Source: Candidatus Saccharimonadota bacterium
GTDB lineage: Bacteria; Patescibacteriota; Saccharimonadia; Saccharimonadales; UBA4665
Length of the DNA stretch: 32,000 nucleotides
Direction: 5' to 3'
NCBI GenBank assembly: GCA_002952755.1
Contig: CP025011.1
Location: 1,170,001-1,202,000, forward strand
Both the position numbers and the translations under genes were made by a program. Positions 23,352-31,949 of this stretch are shown here, one piece after another. The notes below the pieces were generated by a model. It worked only from the letters and a program-made list of their open reading frames with translations. It did no database searches and was not told where the DNA came from. Every line of letters starts with the position of its first letter. The stretch's first letter is position 1.

Positions 23352-23428
23352 GACCCCAGTATACAAACTCGCCTGCATCGGTACGAAAATGTGTCCATAA
23401 ATCCGGACAACTACGCTACAATGTGGGC

Positions 23429-24211
23429 ATGTCATCCATCCAAATCATTACTAAATACCTTGCCAAGCTCGGTTTAGAGCATGACGCTGTAACGTTGTAT
23501 ATTGCCCTGGCTAAATATGGTCAGTCCACTGCGCTGCAGCTAGCAAAACATACCAAGGTAAGCCGGACACAAGTCTATCGTCATCTGGAATTACTCCAAC
23601 AATATGGTCTCGCCAGCGCCGAGCAGTTGCAGTACGGTACGCTTTACCGTGCACTTCCCCTTGATAATATCGAAGGGATCCTTGCCAATCGCGAAGCCGA
23701 GACAGCAGCCATACGTCGCAATCTCGGCGCTATGACTGCAGCTTTGCAAGTTATCGCTGGCGGGAGTGGCCCCAAGGCAACAGTGCAGCACTACTACGGA
23801 CAGGCCGGCCTCAAGCAAGTAAACTGGAACCTTACCAAAGCCGACAAGGAGTACCGCTGTTTCGAAGCTGCGCATATCTCCGCTCATTTAGATCAGGCTT
23901 TTGCCCGTAGACTGCGTGAACGCTGCATCGAGCGTGAGCTTACGAGTTACGACCTCACCAATGACATACGCGTGCACAGCAAACAACTCGAGCCATACGA
24001 ACCGACGCGCACTTTTCTCCGCCACGTTGACCCAGCCATACTCACCATCAACTTTGAGGTACTGCTCTATAATGATGTCGTGACATTGCTGGATTACACC
24101 AGGATCAATGCTATGGCAATCGAAATTCATCACCCTAGCCTCCACGCTATGATGCGCCAATTATTTGATGCGATGTGGACGCAAGCGACACCACTGACTA
24201 TATTGCCTTAG
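23429..24211 (+). CDS. TrmB-like winged-helix transcriptional regulator
   Basis: N-terminal LGLEHDAVTLYIALAKYGQSTALQLAKHTKVSRTQVYRHLELLQQYGLA matches the TrmB-type HTH pattern. The ATG at 23429 has TACAAT 6 nt upstream. The ORF-track start is a GTG at 23423. Confidence 0.65.
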   Translation: MSSIQIITKYLAKLGLEHDAVTLYIALAKYGQSTALQLAKHTKVSRTQVYRHLELLQQYGLASAEQLQYGTLYRALPLDNIEGILANREAETAAIRRNLGAMTAALQVIAGGSGPKATVQHYYGQAGLKQVNWNLTKADKEYRCFEAAHISAHLDQAFARRLRERCIERELTSYDLTNDIRVHSKQLEPYEPTRTFLRHVDPAILTINFEVLLYNDVVTLLDYTRINAMAIEIHHPSLHAMMRQLFDAMWTQATPLTILP

Positions 24212-24214
24212 GCT

Positions 24215-25780
24215 CTATGTCTTGGCCGTTATCTTCAAAATATCGGCGCCATATTTCTCTAATTTGGTTGGGCCAAAACCGTTGATACGTAGGAGGTCTT
24301 GTTCGGTTTGTGGCTTGAGCGCTGCTACTTCCATGAGTGTTTTATCGTGGGCAATGATATATGGTGGGAGATTTTGCTCCTTGGCAGAGTTCGCGCGCCA
24401 CGAGCGCAGCTCTTCAAATAGCACATTGTCAACTGGTAAAGTGCTGTCCGTTGCTGTAGTAGCTCGATCTTGGCGCTCATGCGCACCGCTCGCTTCATCA
24501 GCTTTCCAGGTAGCAATCTCACCAGCTAGATCTTGTAGTGCCCGCTCACTCCGCGCTCGTAGATCGGCATCTATTTGTTTGGCGAGCGGGCTCACCCGTA
24601 GTGCCATACCGTTGAGTCCATCAAGGATCAAATGCTTCAGGGAACGGACCCTGCTGAGTGCCACATAGCCCATGCCCTCTACAAAGGCGCGTGACAAATC
24701 AATCCGCGCAGCATCGAGCGTCATACCCTGACTTTTATGCACGGTAATCGCCCACGCTAAACGCAGTGGTAGCTGCGTAAGTTGCGCCCGGCGCTTATCA
24801 CCATCTACGAGCTCCCAGGTTTCCGGTCGTATCGTAACCCGATTCCCATTTACGAGTTCGACAATAGGATGATCAGTGAGCTTCTCGAAGCCGACCACGG
24901 TGCCCAAGCTACCGTTCGCGTACTTGCGATCCTGAGCATTCTTTATACACATAACTTGAGCATGCTCTTTCAAACGGAGTGTCTCAGGCGCCAAACAGGA
25001 CCGCATTAGCTGTTCAACATACTTTTTGCCACCATGCGTTTCCATATAATATTCATGTGTATCCCCCTCCAGCTCGTCCAGTTGTTCGAGGTTCACGGTA
25101 TCGACATCGACGTTCACCGTAAGCAACCGAGTCTGAGGTGTAAATGGATCTTCAGTAACGCCAGCTCGAGATCGCAGGGTATCGAGCTGACTTCTGGTGA
25201 GTACGCCGGCACGAATGCCGTTCAAAATATTGGTATAGTCTTCATCCTTACTCTGTCGATATTGCTTCTCAAGATAGCAGACAGTGAATACATTTTGTTG
25301 CCACACCTGTGCTGCGATGACAAAACTGCCAGCGCGACTATCGCTGCGGTTCACCGGCGGCAACTGGAAAAAATCGCCGCAGAGTACCACCTGGATACCA
25401 CCGAATGGCTCGTCCACGTCGCGCACGTAACGCAAAATCTCATCCACCATATCCAGACGAAAATCGTGCAGCATACTAATCTCATCAATAATGAGAGTCT
25501 GCACCTTTCGCAGCAATTCCTGCCTGGTCTTACCAATTTTAGCAGCCATATGCTTGTCGAAACTATCGTGCACACCAATGCCCGACCAGGCATGAATGGT
25601 CGTGCCGTTTAGATGGGTTGCAGCCAACCCGGTTGTAGCGGTTACCGCGACGCTCTGGCCGCGTTTTTTAGCACGACGGATAAACGTATTAAGCACATAG
25701 GTCTTACCGGTACCGGCGGCACCAGTGAGTAATACCGACCGACCGGATTCCAGAATTGCCAGTGCCTCGTCTTGAGTCAT
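24215..25780 (-). CDS. Pif1/RecD-like SF1 DNA helicase with a C-terminal HRDC domain
   Basis: Walker A GAAGTGKTY, Walker B LIIDEISM, LCGDFFQLPPV, and motif VI-like WAITVHKSQGMT. The C-terminal ~80 aa (LFEELRSWR...PPYIIAHDKTLMEVAALKP...LLRINGFGPTKLEKYG) is HRDC-like. Confidence 0.85.
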   Translation of the reverse strand: MTQDEALAILESGRSVLLTGAAGTGKTYVLNTFIRRAKKRGQSVAVTATTGLAATHLNGTTIHAWSGIGVHDSFDKHMAAKIGKTRQELLRKVQTLIIDEISMLHDFRLDMVDEILRYVRDVDEPFGGIQVVLCGDFFQLPPVNRSDSRAGSFVIAAQVWQQNVFTVCYLEKQYRQSKDEDYTNILNGIRAGVLTRSQLDTLRSRAGVTEDPFTPQTRLLTVNVDVDTVNLEQLDELEGDTHEYYMETHGGKKYVEQLMRSCLAPETLRLKEHAQVMCIKNAQDRKYANGSLGTVVGFEKLTDHPIVELVNGNRVTIRPETWELVDGDKRRAQLTQLPLRLAWAITVHKSQGMTLDAARIDLSRAFVEGMGYVALSRVRSLKHLILDGLNGMALRVSPLAKQIDADLRARSERALQDLAGEIATWKADEASGAHERQDRATTATDSTLPVDNVLFEELRSWRANSAKEQNLPPYIIAHDKTLMEVAALKPQTEQDLLRINGFGPTKLEKYGADILKITAKT

Positions 25781-25833
25781 AACCCTTTATAGTCCCTCCT
25801 GCAATACGTGTCGTCATTGTAGCAGCAACTCGT

Positions 25834-26574
25834 CTAAAGTGAAGCTCTTTTCTGACTCTTAAGCCCCATAAAATGCTTGCGTTGTTCGGGGGATAGATGT
25901 TCGATGGCATAGCGGAGTGTGGTGCGTGGCATGGTCGCCGCATGTTCGGTCAAAAAATCGAGGAGCGGTTGCCTGCTTACCCGCTTGCCTATCTCTCGAA
26001 GCATCCAGCCTACTGCTTTTTGGATAAGATCTTCTTTGTCGTACAGTAACACCTGAGCGAGTTGTAGCGTGATGTCAGCGTGGCCTTTCTTCACAAATGC
26101 AAACGAACTTAAGATAGCCACACGGCGCTGCCAGATATTGGCATTACGGGCCAGGTCAAATAACAAGTCGGGCGAGTGACCGTATAATTGCTCGCCGATA
26201 ATGAATTCGGCCGAACTGTCTACGAGATCCCAATTGTTTACAAACCCCTGACGAACATTCGCAAGGTAAAGGGCAAAAATTGCCTGCTTCCCAGAAGGAT
26301 CTGCCAGGGCGTACTGATCAGCGAGCAAAATAACAGCGGCTAGGCGGTGTTCGTGCACTTTGCTATGGAATAGCTTCTGTACCTCGCTGAGTGGTAGTGC
26401 GAGAAACTGCCTACAAACTCGACGGATATCAGGCACACGAACACCGATAAATATATCTCCAGCGCCATACTCCCCTTCGCCAGTTTTAAAAAACCGAGCG
26501 AGGAATACGCCATCGTCGACGCGGGCCAGACCTCTAAGTCCATCGATGACAGCTTGTGCAGTTAATTCATTCAT
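25834..26574 (-). CDS. DNA alkylation repair protein (AlkD/AlkC-like HEAT-repeat glycosylase family)
   Basis: Pattern FFKTGEGEYGAGDIFIGVRVPDIR...HEHRLAAVILL...NNWDLVDSSA...WQRRVAILS...VGWMLREIGK fits the family. The start is placed at the ATG at 26574 (MNELTAQ), 5 nt after the upstream stop. The ORF-track start at 26664 would overlap the upstream gene by 85 nt. Confidence 0.78.
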   Translation of the reverse strand: MNELTAQAVIDGLRGLARVDDGVFLARFFKTGEGEYGAGDIFIGVRVPDIRRVCRQFLALPLSEVQKLFHSKVHEHRLAAVILLADQYALADPSGKQAIFALYLANVRQGFVNNWDLVDSSAEFIIGEQLYGHSPDLLFDLARNANIWQRRVAILSSFAFVKKGHADITLQLAQVLLYDKEDLIQKAVGWMLREIGKRVSRQPLLDFLTEHAATMPRTTLRYAIEHLSPEQRKHFMGLKSQKRASL

Positions 26575-26579
26575 GATCG

Positions 26580-26999
26580 CTACGGCTTCAGCAAACCAAT
26601 CACCATGCCCATAGCAAGCAATGTTACGAAACGATTGCCGACGGCCAGTGCCGTGAGTTTCCAAGGCTTTTGTTCGAAGCTGTTATGGATCACTAGTGTC
26701 GTCGCAGCAATACCAATCCAAACCCAAAACGCGGTATTAACCGCATCCATAAAGAAAGACCCCTTAAAGAAGGCGTGCGCCAAAAAGGTAAGGTGAGCGA
26801 GAATGTACGCTGTTAAAAGCGAACCAACAGCTGCGGACACCATTGGCCCCACCACCTTTCGTTTGGTCTTCAGATTATTCAAACCAGCCAATTGCTCCCA
26901 AACCGTACCAAAAACTGTCTTGGAATACCAAATTGTGCCAACTATCATTGCAGCCACCGTGGCCAGAATAACGGCAAGCCAGTTAACTTCTACACTCAT
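26580..26999 (-). CDS. Four-TM membrane protein, DUF1761-like
   Basis: N-terminal NWLAVILATVAAMIVGTIWYSKTVFGTVWEQLAG resembles the DUF1761 signature. Four hydrophobic segments. GGGAGG lies 8 nt upstream of the ATG. Confidence 0.6.
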   Translation of the reverse strand: MSVEVNWLAVILATVAAMIVGTIWYSKTVFGTVWEQLAGLNNLKTKRKVVGPMVSAAVGSLLTAYILAHLTFLAHAFFKGSFFMDAVNTAFWVWIGIAATTLVIHNSFEQKPWKLTALAVGNRFVTLLAMGMVIGLLKP

Positions 27000-27070
27000 T
27001 GCAGGACCCTCCCATGTTACGTTTTTAGTATGCTCCGCTAAGCAGGCACGCGTCTAGCCAGATCTTTTTG

Positions 27071-28141
27071 TTATATGCCGGCTTGCAACAACATATCATC
27101 GTCGGTGCTAGAGAGTTTAAGCGGACGCTTGCGTAGAATTTCGTAACGCAGTCCGGTAAGATTTGACTCCATATAGTCGTCATTGAGTAAATTCACAAAT
27201 TTGGTTAAATCTTTTTGATTCATAATGATAATGGCACCCGCATCGTCGACCATAAGATCTACGCCAATTTCTTCGGCATGGTCGATCAGTTGCTCTTGCT
27301 TAAGCTCCCCTACCTCGATCTTCTGCAATTTATTGATAAGTGCACGGTTACCTTCAACTGCCGACTGTAGCGTAATGCCCTCCGCAAAACTGAGCTTATA
27401 GTTTGCCTCAATCTCTTGCACTTTTTTATTGGCAATACTGTTTTTCTTGGCATCGTAGCCAAATAAACGGTCCAGCTTCGCTTCGTTAAATACATATAAG
27501 TCTTGGTCGAGGACAAGCATGTGGGCTTCAGCAGGAATCTTGAGCGCAGCAGCCTCAAAAGATTTAAACACCTTGCCGTTCACCATCCAGGTGCCCTCGC
27601 CTTTTAGCATCTGGCCACCAGATAGAGCCTTGATGATATAAAAAGGCTGCGGCATTTTGGGGTGACTGACGCGTACCAGTGCACCTTTGATACGTTTGAG
27701 GTCATGTTCTTCCTCGGTGAATAATTCGATCTCGTGCTCCTGGGTACGAATCCAGTGCATCACCTCGCGCAATTTCTCAATCTTCTTCCACTGCACACGC
27801 TGAATGACACCTGACTCGCCTTCTCCATCGCTAAAATCACGCACAACAACGCCTTCTTCTGCACCCTCAAGGACTTGCTCCAATGTATTGTCGATGAATA
27901 GCTCCTGCAAATGCTTGCCAAGGCTTGGATCAAGCTTCGTACGATAGACAACGTTGTTCTTGTTTATCCAGAAAACCTCAAGCGCCAACTCTTCCTTGTA
28001 CTCAAATAGATTATTTGCCCACGCAAAAACGTCTGTCTCCTGGTAGTCATCATCTTTCAGCTCTGACAATATATCGGCAGGAGCTTCCGATTCTGGTTTG
28101 ATGATTTGATTATCTGTTTTAATAGGCTCGTCGTCTGGCAT
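27071..28141 (-). CDS. KwaB/DUF4868-like protein (family call from memory, unverified)
   Basis: 356 aa from the ATG at 28141, where TAGAAT lies 7 nt upstream; the ORF-track start is 28150. Acidic N-terminus. Central LVLDQDLYVFNEAKLDRLFGY. C-terminal FVNLLNDDYMESNLTGLRYE...KRPL resembles the C-terminal signature I recall for DUF4868. Confidence 0.5.
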   Translation of the reverse strand: MPDDEPIKTDNQIIKPESEAPADILSELKDDDYQETDVFAWANNLFEYKEELALEVFWINKNNVVYRTKLDPSLGKHLQELFIDNTLEQVLEGAEEGVVVRDFSDGEGESGVIQRVQWKKIEKLREVMHWIRTQEHEIELFTEEEHDLKRIKGALVRVSHPKMPQPFYIIKALSGGQMLKGEGTWMVNGKVFKSFEAAALKIPAEAHMLVLDQDLYVFNEAKLDRLFGYDAKKNSIANKKVQEIEANYKLSFAEGITLQSAVEGNRALINKLQKIEVGELKQEQLIDHAEEIGVDLMVDDAGAIIIMNQKDLTKFVNLLNDDYMESNLTGLRYEILRKRPLKLSSTDDDMLLQAGI

Positions 28142-28195
28142 ACACACCATTCTACCGGACCACTCGTCAAAAAGCTGCTGTAAAAAAGCACTCTG

Positions 28196-28624
28196 CTAAA
28201 CGCTAGGCCTTTTTTGCTGTTGCTCACGGGCGCGATTTGCCCACTGATCGGCAAGCTCGTTACCCGGATCATTATTATGACCGCGGACCCATATGAGCGT
28301 CGCCTGAGATTGACGATACAACGGGCAGACTTCCCGAACGATGTCGAGATTTTTAATTTCGCCGCCTTTTTTCTTCCAGCCGTTCTTTTCCCATGGTATA
28401 GACCATTTAGTAATGACATTGATCCAAAATTCGCTGTCGGTATAAATCTGCGCTTGTTCGTCTCTAGCGTCTTTCAGGGCGGCGATAATCGCTTGGCCTT
28501 CCATACGAATATTGGTTGTATTATGCTCACCGCCAAGCTGGCACACTTCCATATTTTTGATAACTGCGAATCCGCCCGTACCCGGATTCGGTTCGCAGCT
28601 ACCATCGGTATAATAGACAATCAT
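28196..28624 (-). CDS. rnhA: Ribonuclease HI
   Basis: The DEDD catalytic pattern is in order: YTDGS, RMEGQA, IYTDSE, and GHNNDPGNELADQWA. Confidence 0.9.
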   Translation of the reverse strand: MIVYYTDGSCEPNPGTGGFAVIKNMEVCQLGGEHNTTNIRMEGQAIIAALKDARDEQAQIYTDSEFWINVITKWSIPWEKNGWKKKGGEIKNLDIVREVCPLYRQSQATLIWVRGHNNDPGNELADQWANRAREQQQKRPSV

Positions 28625-28664
28625 TATATGAGTGTAGCAGAACTCGCATCAGGAGCAGCAGCTA

Positions 28665-30011
28665 TTAAGTCAGGAGATCAGTTGTTAGTTCGCGAGTAGC
28701 AACACGGCGCTGTTCGGCAGTATCGCGGTCGCGGATGGTTACCGTACCGTCTTCGAGTGTTTGGAAGTCGATCGTTACACACAATGGCGTACCGATCTCG
28801 TCTTGACGGCGGTAGCGCTTCCCGATGTTGCCGTTGTCATCCCACATGACGGCGCCGAGCTCTCTTTTAAGCTGTGCATATACTTCCTGAGCCCTAGAAA
28901 CAAGTTCCGGTTTGTTCTTGAGTAGTGGGCTGACTGCAGCTTTGTAGGGGGCAAGGCTCGGCTTGAGCTTGAGCACTAAGCGCTTTTCGCCATGTAATTC
29001 ATCTTCCGCAAAAGCATTGGCCAGTACGGCCATAAGCATACGGCCCACACCTACCGAACTCTCTATGACATACGGGGTAAACTTCTGACGTGTTTCGTCA
29101 TCAAAATATTGTAAATCTTTGCCGCTCCCCCTTTGGTGAGCACTCAGATCAAAGTCGGTCCGGTTATGCGTTCCCCAAAGCTCCTTGAAGCCCTGTGGGA
29201 ATCTGAAGTAGATGTCGTGTGCTGCCGCAGCGTAGTGTGCGCGCTCTTTTTCGTCATGCTCATGCCATTGCAAGTTTTCTTTGCTAATACCCAGTCGCTC
29301 CACCAAAAAATTCCAGGCGAATTCGCGCCACTGTGCATAGGCGGTTTCTTGCATCTCGGGCTTGATGAAATACTGCATTTCCATCTGTTCTAACTCGCGG
29401 ACACGGAAGATAAAATCGCGCGGTGAAATTTCGTTTCTGAAGGCTTTGCCTATTTGAGCAATGCCGAACGGCAACTTGGCACGCATCGTTTCCCGTACAT
29501 TTTCGTAGTTGGTGAATATCGAACCCGCAGTTTCTGGACGCAAATAAGCCACCGAACTTTCATCTTCGACAGGGCCGACCCATGTCTTCATCATCATGTT
29601 ATACTTGCGCGGTTCAGTGAGCGTATGCTTACCGCAAACGGGGCAAGCTTTGTCCTTGAGAAGTTCTTTAAGTTCGCTCAAGTCGGTCGAATCGGTGTCC
29701 GCTAGATGATCAGCCCGCAAACGGGCCCCACAATTTTTGCAGTCCACAAGCGGGTCGGTAAAACCGGCTACGTGGCCGCTTGCTTCCCATAATCTAGGGC
29801 TTTGAATAATAGCACCGTCTACCCCGAACACATTATCGTGCTCACGGACCATCGCCCGCCACCATTCTTGCTTTAGGTTATTAACCAGCTCCACACCCAA
29901 AGGGCCATAATCCCAAAAGCCGGCTATACCACCGTAGATATCGCTGGCTTGAAATACAAAACCTCGGCGTTTTGCCAAGTTTGTAATATCTTCTAGAGAA
30001 ACAGTGCTCAT
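28665..30011 (-). CDS. glyQS: Glycine--tRNA ligase (dimeric class II GlyQS type)
   Basis: N-terminal RRGFVFQASDIYGGIAGFWDYGPLGVEL. Class II motifs (FRNEISPR, ...RVRELEQMEMQYF). C-terminal anticodon-binding region with GKRYRRQDEIGTP. Confidence 0.95.
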   Translation of the reverse strand: MSTVSLEDITNLAKRRGFVFQASDIYGGIAGFWDYGPLGVELVNNLKQEWWRAMVREHDNVFGVDGAIIQSPRLWEASGHVAGFTDPLVDCKNCGARLRADHLADTDSTDLSELKELLKDKACPVCGKHTLTEPRKYNMMMKTWVGPVEDESSVAYLRPETAGSIFTNYENVRETMRAKLPFGIAQIGKAFRNEISPRDFIFRVRELEQMEMQYFIKPEMQETAYAQWREFAWNFLVERLGISKENLQWHEHDEKERAHYAAAAHDIYFRFPQGFKELWGTHNRTDFDLSAHQRGSGKDLQYFDDETRQKFTPYVIESSVGVGRMLMAVLANAFAEDELHGEKRLVLKLKPSLAPYKAAVSPLLKNKPELVSRAQEVYAQLKRELGAVMWDDNGNIGKRYRRQDEIGTPLCVTIDFQTLEDGTVTIRDRDTAEQRRVATRELTTDLLT

Positions 30012-30139
30012 CGTGTAATACTTACCTTTCGAGGTCTTAACGTAGGAATTACATACATAAGAGATAGGGCCCTAGAGGCCACTCTTTTGTCCAAACCCTT
30101 ACTCTGTCTTGACTCTCAGCATGCCCATATCAGTTCTAA

Positions 30140-30832
30140 TTATACCCGAAGATAGGTTTGCAGCATAGAGTACATCAGAGGTGCGAGCTCGCTGGTCAAT
30201 TGGCTACTCCCCTGCACTTGCGCCATAACCTTAGCAGGGTGCGATGCAAAACTCAGACGAAGATATTTGATATGTGTAGGCCTAAAACGACCACGATCGT
30301 CTATCTGGAAGCACATGTCGTCAAAACTAAAGGCATAGGTATGGTCAGACGCAAGCCGTCTACCGTCTATGTCTGTTTCGAGATTGGGCGCATGGCCGCT
30401 CAAGTGTAGCAATTGTGCCGCAAACCAAAAACGAATAATCTCCGTCGATACGGTTCTATCGTCGAGCGCTTCAAAAGCAGAGCGTAATACAGTGAAGTAC
30501 TCCCGCTCGGGCTCGTCCTCTGTTACGCGATGTAATTGTTTGATCAGATCATAGCCTGCCATTGTGCGGTCTAAATCGGTAACGATCGTACCATAGTGAG
30601 TAACGAGCCTGGTGGATACGAGCGTACCAAGGTCGCTCTTGCCTTTTACATAGGTGATGATGCTCACACTAAATAGCTCAATACCGCCAGCCAGCTTGGA
30701 TTTGACACGACGTACACCCTTAGCCATTAGGCGTATTTTGCCTAACTCTGGCGTGAGTAGCGTAATGATACGATCGGCCTCACCATAATCGGTTCTGGCT
30801 AGAATAATAGCTTCGGTAACGAGCTGGTTCAT
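30140..30832 (-). CDS. recO: DNA repair protein RecO
   Basis: N-terminal OB-fold pattern EAIILARTDYGEADRIITLLTPELGKIRLMAKGVRR.KSKLAGGIELFS. The ATG at 30832 forms an ATGA overlap with the stop of the upstream receiver gene. The ORF-track start at 30847 adds 5 aa. Confidence 0.85.
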   Translation of the reverse strand: MNQLVTEAIILARTDYGEADRIITLLTPELGKIRLMAKGVRRVKSKLAGGIELFSVSIITYVKGKSDLGTLVSTRLVTHYGTIVTDLDRTMAGYDLIKQLHRVTEDEPEREYFTVLRSAFEALDDRTVSTEIIRFWFAAQLLHLSGHAPNLETDIDGRRLASDHTYAFSFDDMCFQIDDRGRFRPTHIKYLRLSFASHPAKVMAQVQGSSQLTSELAPLMYSMLQTYLRV

Positions 30833-31212
30833 ATGCCGCTCGTACACTCGCGGATCAATCGAACAAGGTCCAGCAAGGTGGTGCGCGGTTTATAGCAAAC
30901 AGCCACCACTCCCAGGTCAGCGTGCAAAATACTCTCGATATCGGCCAGTATGAGCGGTGGTATGGTTGTGTTCACGACTACTGGAATGCTTGCCCATTCC
31001 GGATATGAGCGAAATTCGTGCAAAAATTCGACTCCATTATGGGCAGGGAGCTGTAGCTCCATGAGCAGAATATCTGGCATACGCCTATCGGCCGCATCGA
31101 CTGCTGCCTGCCCCCCGGCGACATGCACCACGTGGTGGCCGACATGGGCGAAGGCCCGTGTATACGTTGCCGCCAACAAGGTGTTAGGTTCTATCAATAA
31201 TATATTTGACAT
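30829..31212 (-). CDS. Stand-alone receiver (REC) domain protein lacking the phospho-acceptor Asp
   Basis: CheY-like pattern. It reads ILLIEPN where the acidic DD pair is expected, and DILLMELQLP where DxxxxDxxMP is expected, so the acceptor is Glu. The conserved Thr (VVVNTT) and Lys (CYKP) are retained. No output domain. Confidence 0.8.
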   Translation of the reverse strand: MSNILLIEPNTLLAATYTRAFAHVGHHVVHVAGGQAAVDAADRRMPDILLMELQLPAHNGVEFLHEFRSYPEWASIPVVVNTTIPPLILADIESILHADLGVVAVCYKPRTTLLDLVRLIRECTSGI

Positions 31213-31223
31213 GAGTACAAAAT

Positions 31224-31949
31224 TTATACAAATTGTAATTGCCTGCTCGGTTGCAGCGTAGCTGCCAGGCCTTGTTCGTGCTGGTACCGACCGACACGCA
31301 AGCGGCTGTTCATTGAGCGAAAAATGGCATCGGCAACAAATAAGCCTGCCGCGCTACCCGTGCCAATAGCCGTAAGCGGCTGTCTGGCCTTGCCGGCGAG
31401 GTCTAGCGCAGTACGCCACCGATCCGCTCTTAGCTCCTCGTATTCACCATACATGCCGGCAACGAGGCCGTGTGGTGTCCGATGAAAGCCAAGCGTGACA
31501 TGCCGTGGCCGACGCTCCGGCCTAGATGCTTCAGCTTCGACAAGACTAAAGCCCAGCGAAAGTAACGCCGCCTTTAACCCGCGCTGATGACTCATGACCG
31601 GCCCATAGCGTCCACCCACTCGTAGCTCCAATTCGACGCCATAATACTGCGCAAAACGACTCAGCTCATGCGCTACATCAACCAGCAGCGAAGATACAGA
31701 AACCGGCTCCATGACCAGTTCGACTTGTTCACTCCATAGCTGCAGACCAAGCAGATAGCTATCGACAAGCGTTAACGCGGCAGCGGCCTGGGTGCCGATC
31801 GCCCCCACGTCCGTCATTCGGAGATCGCCAGTGAGTTGGCCGAGCTCGGCCTGCCGAGCGATGGTCGTGAGCGGTACTTTGAGTTGCTCGGCAATGGAGA
31901 GTAGCAAATCATCAGAGCCCACGCGGACCGGATCATCCCCTATTGCCAT
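31224..31949 (-). CDS. Cytoplasmic histidine-kinase-like protein with degenerate H-box and ATP-binding boxes (pseudokinase candidate)
   Basis: The DHp-like SIAEQLKVPLTTIARQAEL aligns with the HisKA consensus SHELRTPLTsI, with Glu at the His position. The C-terminal GTGSAAGLFVADAI resembles a G2 box, but the N and G1 boxes are not recognisable. No TM or sensor domain. GAGGG lies 8 nt upstream of the ATG. Confidence 0.55.
   Translation of the reverse strand: MAIGDDPVRVGSDDLLLSIAEQLKVPLTTIARQAELGQLTGDLRMTDVGAIGTQAAAALTLVDSYLLGLQLWSEQVELVMEPVSVSSLLVDVAHELSRFAQYYGVELELRVGGRYGPVMSHQRGLKAALLSLGFSLVEAEASRPERRPRHVTLGFHRTPHGLVAGMYGEYEELRADRWRTALDLAGKARQPLTAIGTGSAAGLFVADAIFRSMNSRLRVGRYQHEQGLAATLQPSRQLQFV

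Follow-up and report, generated by a model that had tools for sequence, protein, structure and literature searches.

We analyzed a 32,000-nucleotide (nt) stretch of the genome of a Candidatus Saccharimonadota bacterium (assembly GCA_002952755.1, contig CP025011.1, positions 1,170,001 to 1,202,000 of the forward strand; referred to as the window here), which encodes a 356-amino-acid (aa) protein resembling KwaB, the DUF4868 effector of the Kiwa antiphage system. This KwaB-like protein is a true, full-length KwaB/DUF4868 homolog, its locus is not a Kiwa system, and it belongs to a distinct subfamily that lacks both KwaA and the organization of a defense system. The gene most consistently linked to it codes for a Pif1-family helicase with a C-terminal HRDC domain (Pif1-HRDC), and the two are also found paired in distant genomes and within a recombination module of phage type. 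From homology and gene context we infer, with moderate confidence, that the protein is a DNA-binding accessory factor that acts together with Pif1 and RNase HI on replication, recombination, or R-loop intermediates. Kiwa is among the most abundant bacterial defense systems, and what is at stake is the origin of its effector.

We found no paper in the literature on this KwaA-less subfamily or on its neighborhoods with Pif1, RNase HI, or annealase genes. An earlier reading of the window, made from the letters alone (the sequence-only reading), had expected the arrangement to be undescribed under either of its two interpretations. This is true only in part, since NCBI already labels relatives of the protein “Kiwa anti-phage protein KwaB-like domain-containing protein” and a DUF4868 protein of Southlakia epibionticum stands in a published table.

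Family membership and the search for KwaA

The assignment of the 356-aa protein to KwaB/DUF4868, as proposed by the sequence-only reading, was borne out by profile searches and by comparison with KwaB structures. The Pfam KwaB model (PF16162, DUF4868) matched it with 55.9 bits (E value, 7e-15; cutoff, 26.3), as did nine PADLOC KwaB models, the best of which (E value, 4.8e-18) aligned residues 48 to 345 with positions 13 to 315 of 320. When a profile of 26 subfamily members was aligned by hhalign with a profile of 15 canonical KwaB proteins, the probability was 100% and the E value 2.6e-43 over 301 columns, with KwaB positions 1 to 315 corresponding to window residues 34 to 343. Against one single KwaB sequence, hhalign recovered the last 65 columns only, at a probability of 50%, and direct sequence comparison with the solved KwaB chains was weak (E value, 0.005), covering only the C-terminal LLNDDY...LT motif. 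An AlphaFold2 model of the protein (predicted local distance difference test [pLDDT], 79.4; predicted template modeling score, 0.74) was searched against the PDB with Foldseek, and the sole significant matches were the KwaB structures 9mtn, 9nyu, and 9mrx (E value, ∼1e-11; 312 to 333 columns). The template modeling scores to these structures were modest (0.39 to 0.47), perhaps owing to a different orientation of both domains.

The KwaB-like protein is composed of an N-terminal tail, the KwaB N-terminal (Rossmann-like) domain, and the C-terminal DUF4868 domain. Its two-domain architecture and fold are shared over the whole length with KwaB (E. coli O55:H7 RM12579; 9mtn, 9nyu, 9mrx), and so are the C-terminal motif LLNDDYxxSxLT and the central DxYxxN...LF block; the blocks HMLVLDQDLYVFNEAKLDRLFGY and LLNDDYMESNLTGLRYEILRKRPL are both found in the 356-aa protein. 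Identity to E. coli KwaB is ∼16% over the hhalign alignment. In contrast to KwaB, the KwaB-like protein starts with an extra tail, after which comes a D(I/V)FxWAN motif, and the isoelectric point (pI) of the window protein is 4.8, versus 7.0 in E. coli KwaB. The tail comprises the first ∼35 residues, which are acidic, disordered, and poorly modeled (pLDDT of <50 over residues 1 to 19), and its length varies among homologs.

Kiwa consists of KwaA, a tetramer-forming protein with four transmembrane segments, and of KwaB, which KwaA holds at the membrane (PMC11785009). The kwaA gene normally shares an operon with kwaB and stands directly in front of it. For comparison, reference kwaA-kwaB loci were retrieved from E. 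coli O55:H7 RM12579 and from Emticicia. The PADLOC KwaA models matched none of the open reading frames (ORFs) of the window, every predicted multitransmembrane protein included, and no KwaA was among the families listed for the 156 immediate neighbors in 80 related genomes. Likewise, tblastn with the E. coli and Emticicia KwaA proteins gave matches only at the positive-control loci (L097 to L099). Taken together, these searches turned up no KwaA in the window, at ∼175 related loci, or beside any relative.

The sequence-only reading had considered a reordered Kiwa, in which a DUF1761 protein with four transmembrane segments, encoded downstream of the KwaB-like gene, takes the place of KwaA as membrane sensor. 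In the window, its gene does lie 71 nt past the KwaB-like stop codon on the same strand, with a strong ribosome-binding site (GGGAGG) in front of its ATG, and the protein is small and multitransmembrane, like KwaA. However, it has no match to any PADLOC model, KwaA included, and no BLASTP similarity to E. coli KwaA, and its gene is found within 6 kb in only 20 of the 80 related loci, split equally between the upstream and the downstream side (10 each). It is the immediate downstream gene in just 3 to 4 of 78 loci. In a deeper clade, whose KwaB-like proteins are 39 to 46% identical to that of the window, only 2 of 23 clusters have it. By a crude predictor, in which both real KwaA proteins score three transmembrane segments, a neighbor with at least three such segments is present upstream in 4 and downstream in 5 of 78 loci, and the 15 more distant loci have no such neighbor. 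The DUF1761 gene is a lineage-variable insert between the KwaB-like gene and Pif1 and not a conserved partner. The sequence-only reading had itself named freely varying neighbors as evidence against a conserved module, and because the neighbors do vary freely, the partnership with DUF1761 is refuted; a reordered Kiwa is thus highly improbable.

The distribution of the gene also differs from that of Kiwa, which has spread by horizontal transfer and is associated with mobile elements at ∼54% of its loci (PMC11785009). Instead of the patchy distribution expected of Kiwa, often on mobile elements or in defense islands, the KwaB-like gene shows a conserved gene order in a housekeeping locus without kwaA, where it is apparently inherited vertically and where its divergence tracks that of its neighbors. 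Its linkage to Pif1 and RNase HI is a further difference from canonical kwaB.

Genomic neighborhood in chromosomes and phages

Database searches with the window protein returned 1,821 relatives, of which the top 120 are 59 to 100% identical to it and, where the source is named, come mostly from Saccharimonadales or Patescibacteria. We carried out a neighborhood census with one genome per species; relatives were found in 220 stretches of species-representative genomes, and the best 80 were analyzed, counting Pif1 only where 5 kb or more of sequence was available downstream, and RNase HI only where 5 kb or more was available upstream. The common order is receiver, recO, glyS, ..., RNase HI, ..., KwaB-like, ..., Pif1-HRDC, always on one strand. 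Pif1-HRDC follows in 51 of 63 loci (directly adjacent in 18 to 19 of 78) and RNase HI precedes in 39 of 57 (directly adjacent in 13 to 17 of 78), both on the strand of the KwaB-like gene, and the receiver/recO/glyS backbone lies upstream in the same order and strand in 20 to 40 of the 80 loci, within a 6-kb flank. The sequence-only reading had asked whether rnhA or DUF1761 is recurrently adjacent; rnhA recurs upstream at the rate just given, whereas DUF1761 does not recur in this way. The gene for an AlkD-like protein, which separates DUF1761 from Pif1 in the window, was present in only 9 of the 80 loci and at varying positions; it is a variable, lineage-specific insert, not a partner. The gaps between RNase HI and the KwaB-like gene and between the latter and Pif1 behave as insertion hot spots in a backbone that is conserved otherwise (noted at window positions 26580 to 27070 and 25781 to 26579 and in the equivalent gaps of loci L001 to L185), and the genes inserted there include GH6 with a ricin lectin, NUDIX, NYN, DUF218, DUF1761, AlkD, and ABC transporters.

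In Saccharimonadia, the KwaB-like gene appears to be vertically inherited and under strong purifying selection, unlike a mobile defense gene. It occupies a fixed chromosomal site with RNase HI on one side and a Pif1-type helicase on the other, an arrangement present in hundreds of Saccharibacteria genomes; the surrounding housekeeping region also contains recO and glyS and, at a greater distance, the dcw cluster. The identity of the KwaB-like protein to that of the window tracks the identity of Pif1 (Spearman correlation, 0.88; n = 57), as it does that of the receiver protein, RecO, and RNase HI. Within the same loci its mean identity is 63 to 67%, compared with 53% for glycyl-tRNA synthetase (GlyRS) and 57% for RecO, and 74 columns are invariant across 47 KwaB-like sequences. 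Nonsynonymous divergence (dN) ranged from 0.07 to 0.22, while synonymous divergence (dS) was saturated in all but one tested pair, so that dN/dS is not quantifiable. As a separate observation, the GlyRS encoded beside recO is 82 to 86% identical to that of the window in three loci (L001, L015, and L020) and ∼50 to 55% identical in all others, while the KwaB-like protein is still 75 to 84% identical in many loci with a GlyRS of ∼50 to 55%; two types of GlyRS, or displacement of the gene in situ, may underlie this split.

A scan of an independent metagenome set added 80 further loci, which form the 23 clusters of the deeper clade (clustered at 90% identity; GC content, 37 to 55%). In this clade, 13 of 15 clusters have Pif1 downstream, often only 36 to 40 nt from the KwaB-like gene, and 16 of 17 have RNase H upstream. 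The pairing is also seen in more distant members. In a locus of 30% GC (L084) the KwaB-like gene is followed directly by Pif1, while on a 71-kb chromosomal contig (L103) the last two genes have changed places (RNase H, PIF1, KwaB-like). In the cultivated Southlakia epibionticum ML1, SEML1_0262 encodes RNase HI, SEML1_0263 a hypothetical protein, SEML1_0264 Pif1 (K15255), and SEML1_0265 a DUF4868 protein (PMC10633639, Tables S1 and S2); the last is listed in the published transposon sequencing (Tn-seq) table as a hypothetical protein of 337 aa, and YvcK/CofD and rsmH lie further along (PMC10633639). This is the same kind of neighborhood as in the window, but Pif1 precedes the DUF4868 gene. Judging from synteny and domain content, SEML1_0265 is probably orthologous to the KwaB-like protein of the window. 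That genes remain together through a rearrangement argues more strongly for a functional link than an unchanged gene order would.

More distant relatives were collected with an exhaustive HMMER search of 1.84 billion cluster representatives, which yielded only 175 relatives; those 28 to 42% identical to the window protein frequently have phage-like contexts. One such contig (L082) carries, in order, RecT, YqaJ, an exonuclease-like gene, a helix-turn-helix (HTH) gene, KwaB-like, PIF1, and HerA, so that KwaB-like and Pif1 genes form a pair as they do in the window; this PIF1 is 45% identical to the helicase of the window. On other contigs we found RecT, KwaB-like, ..., PDDEXK/FtsK (L085); PDDEXK/FtsK and then KwaB-like (L101); ERF, RNase_T, ..., KwaB-like (L104); and a KwaB-like gene on a contig containing YopX (L096). 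We also scanned IMG/VR with a six-sequence alignment as query and retrieved nine contigs with a KwaB-like gene (L087 to L095), most of them ∼32 kb long. In L087, RecT lies upstream and a superfamily 2 (SF2) helicase gene downstream, and phage-type genes flank the KwaB-like gene in five others, which supports their identity as phages: L091 and L092 have a terminase large subunit, L090 has a tail protein, and L095 and L089 have an endolysin or amidase. One contig labeled viral, L088 (IMGVR_UViG_3300008472_000016), carries the trio RNase H, KwaB-like, Pif1 and clusters with the chromosomal metagenome loci; instead of a phage, it may represent the host chromosome or the surroundings of a prophage.

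Taken as a group, the KwaB-like proteins of phage and phage-like sources (IMG/VR contigs L087 to L095; Logan contigs L082, L085, L101, and L104; and BFVD entry A0A8S5QWK1) belong to the same KwaA-less subfamily, have the motifs in common, and are 28 to 50% identical to the window protein. Unlike the window gene, the phage copies sit in early, recombination-type regions beside RecT, ERF, YqaJ, RNase_T, PDDEXK, or SF2 helicase genes. A rough neighbor-joining tree, which carries no support values, sets canonical KwaB apart from the KwaA-less group and interleaves the chromosomal clades with the copies from mobile elements. Among cultured phages, a tblastn search of the GenBank phage collection with one phage-like relative (P0128) gave no match, and in PHROGs the KwaB-like proteins match only weakly, to phrog_11123, a family without known function. 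Two other candidates were dropped: P0174, considered as a canonical KwaA-KwaB locus, proved to be a phage-like, KwaA-less copy, and stop-codon recoding in L089 was rejected, as its KwaB-like ORF is intact.

Possible roles on DNA

KwaB forms dimers and binds both single-stranded DNA (ssDNA) and double-stranded DNA (dsDNA) without sequence specificity, preferring the former; DNA is predicted to pass through a basic channel of the protein, and KwaB has been proposed to stall replication forks (PMC11785009). We mapped the DNA-contact residues of E. coli KwaB (N134, R142, R167, D169, K187, and R233) onto the window protein. At the ∼16% identity of this alignment, R142 and R167 correspond to K180 and K201, which are conserved as K or R, while the counterparts of K187 and R233 are A221 and N270, which are immediately next to invariant lysines (K222 and K271, respectively), and N134 and D169 are not conserved in the window protein. 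The KwaB-like protein probably still binds DNA.

In the role that we propose, the KwaB-like protein would keep the ssDNA and dsDNA binding of KwaB, turned on the cell's own DNA, and would recognize or hold forks, flaps, R-loops, or DNA ends. Such intermediates would be the substrates of the two enzymes encoded next to it: forks, flaps, G-quadruplexes, and RNA-DNA hybrids are substrates of Pif1 helicases, and RNase HI degrades the RNA strand of the hybrids. The phage-encoded relatives might do an equivalent job in recombination-dependent replication of the phage. Co-option of a KwaB homolog for DNA or R-loop transactions had also been raised by the sequence-only reading, and it fits the recurrent same-strand linkage to RNase HI and, above all, to Pif1-HRDC.

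Several observations weigh against this proposal. Four of the six contact residues of KwaB are not conserved at the aligned position, and the window protein is acidic. In most loci the KwaB-like, Pif1, and RNase HI genes are not directly adjacent but have variable genes between them, and synteny within a lineage can be plain inherited gene order. Several phage copies (L090 to L095) have only unannotated immediate neighbors. In the Tn-seq data for Southlakia, the DUF4868 gene and Pif1 were nonessential in coculture at T0, T1, and T2, without fitness cost, and RNase HI showed a late growth defect (PMC10633639). Since the DUF4868 gene is nonessential, laboratory growth does not depend on whatever maintenance role it may have. 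The Tn-seq pattern fits an accessory repair role but is equally compatible with a role in defense.

Defense is also the main rival to the DNA-maintenance reading. The KwaB-like protein could be a stand-alone, KwaA-free effector, now fixed in Saccharimonadia, that directly binds the DNA of invading phages or plasmids, as KwaB does, its synteny with Pif1 and RNase HI being accidental. Its sole characterized relatives are defense effectors (PMC11785009), the syntenic Southlakia gene is dispensable, as defense genes are, and the phage homologs could be decoys or superinfection-exclusion genes. However, the gene lies in a fixed housekeeping locus whose neighbors diverge along with it, with no defense island or mobile element; its product is at least as conserved in sequence as GlyRS and RecO; and the pairing with Pif1 recurs in unrelated contexts. 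Furthermore, it is tethering by KwaA that keeps the nonspecific DNA binding of KwaB safe (PMC11785009), and an untethered effector would need some other means of avoiding self-DNA. On balance, we consider stand-alone defense rather doubtful.

Less probable still is that only the fold is shared and that the protein has a role unrelated to DNA, for instance, that of a regulator whose N-terminal Rossmann-like domain binds nucleotides, in which case the neighborhood would be uninformative. The acidity of the protein, the four contact positions out of six that are not conserved, the low identity to E. coli KwaB, and the many phage copies with unannotated neighbors all agree with such a role. Against it, the best-conserved blocks are precisely the DUF4868 motifs common to canonical KwaB, and genes of DNA metabolism co-locate repeatedly with the KwaB-like gene in independent contexts, including Pif1, RNase H, RecT, ERF, YqaJ, PDDEXK, and SF2 helicases.

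A KwaA-less KwaB subfamily that is conserved in synteny with Pif1 and RNase HI throughout a whole class of episymbionts with reduced genomes, and that is found in recombination modules of phages as well, suggests that the DUF4868 DNA-binding fold has an ancestral or parallel role in housekeeping and recombination. Only tentatively, we extend the DNA-maintenance reading to its history: KwaB-like and Pif1 might form an old two-protein module for DNA maintenance and recombination that is common to Saccharibacteria and phages and to which RNase HI was added in Saccharimonadia, and the KwaB of Kiwa might have been exapted from it through tethering by KwaA, or the history might have run in reverse. 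If this were true, a defense effector and a conserved chromosomal genome-maintenance factor would have one DNA-clamping mechanism in common. In practice, “KwaB-like” annotations in Patescibacteria should not be scored as defense genes. The DNA-maintenance reading is directly testable, given that Southlakia epibionticum is genetically tractable and its syntenic gene tolerates transposon insertions.

Layout of the locus in the window

The genes around the KwaB-like gene are listed in the table below. An ORF check and Pfam searches confirmed the ORFs, the families of the neighbors, the quoted sequence blocks, the GGGAGG ribosome-binding site, and the 71-nt gap given by the sequence-only reading. 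Its run of DNA-metabolism genes (recO, rnhA, the AlkD-like gene, and Pif1-HRDC) was right as to the families but omitted the glycyl-tRNA synthetase gene between recO and rnhA.

Table. Genes of the KwaB-like locus, with positions in the window
Feature	Positions	Strand	Basis or remark
Response-regulator receiver protein	30829-31212	minus	Pfam assignment
recO (RecO)	30140-30847	minus	Pfam RecO_N, 74 bits
Glycyl-tRNA synthetase (glyS)	28665-30011	minus	Pfam assignment
RNase HI	28196-28624	minus	Pfam RNase_H, E value 1.5e-32, 113 bits
KwaB-like protein, 356 aa	27071-28141	minus	Pfam PF16162 and PADLOC KwaB
DUF1761 membrane protein, 139 aa, four transmembrane segments	26580-26999	minus	Pfam DUF1761 (PF08570), 91.5 bits, cutoff 31, full profile length
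AlkD-like DNA-alkylation repair protein, 246 aa	25834-26574	minus	Pfam DNA_alkylation, E value 1e-50, 173 bits
Pif1-family superfamily 1 (SF1B) helicase, C-terminal HRDC domain	24215-25780	minus	Pfam PIF1, Pif1_2B, HRDC
TrmB-like HTH regulator	23423-24211	plus	Follows the Pif1-HRDC gene

The three domains of the helicase all score above the Pfam thresholds (PIF1, 141.2 bits, E value of 5e-41; Pif1_2B, 25.9 bits; HRDC, 84.3 bits, E value of 6e-24). For the KwaB-like gene there is an alternative in-frame ATG at position 28150, which would give a protein of 359 aa. The gap to RNase HI is 45 nt with this start, the value given by the sequence-only reading, but 54 nt with the start at 28141, which belongs to the 356-aa form that it described. 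For the AlkD-like gene, a mechanical ORF starting from the TTG at 26664 has 276 aa and overlaps the DUF1761 gene, while the public gene call starts from the ATG at 26574 (246 aa), 5 nt past the DUF1761 stop codon. In a scan of positions 24000 to 31300, counts of promoters and terminators were not above those in shuffled sequence, and the operon structure is not readable from them.

The rest of the window is ordinary core chromosome, with topA, dprA, der, pth, radC, xseAB, CofD/YvcK, and mraZ-rsmH-ftsW-PBP-mraY-murG; the window is a housekeeping region and contains no defense island. PADLOC models for ShosA, PsyrA, LeoA, and LeoBC had matches at positions 1 to 23000, which would fit generic housekeeping homologs (e.g., DprA or the Der GTPase) rather than defense genes. 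Finally, the divergent TrmB-like HTH regulator adjoins Pif1 in many chromosomal loci, and on two phage contigs (L090:4936-5709 and L095:3784-4668) the KwaB-like gene is likewise preceded, at a short distance, by a gene for a TrmB-like HTH protein.

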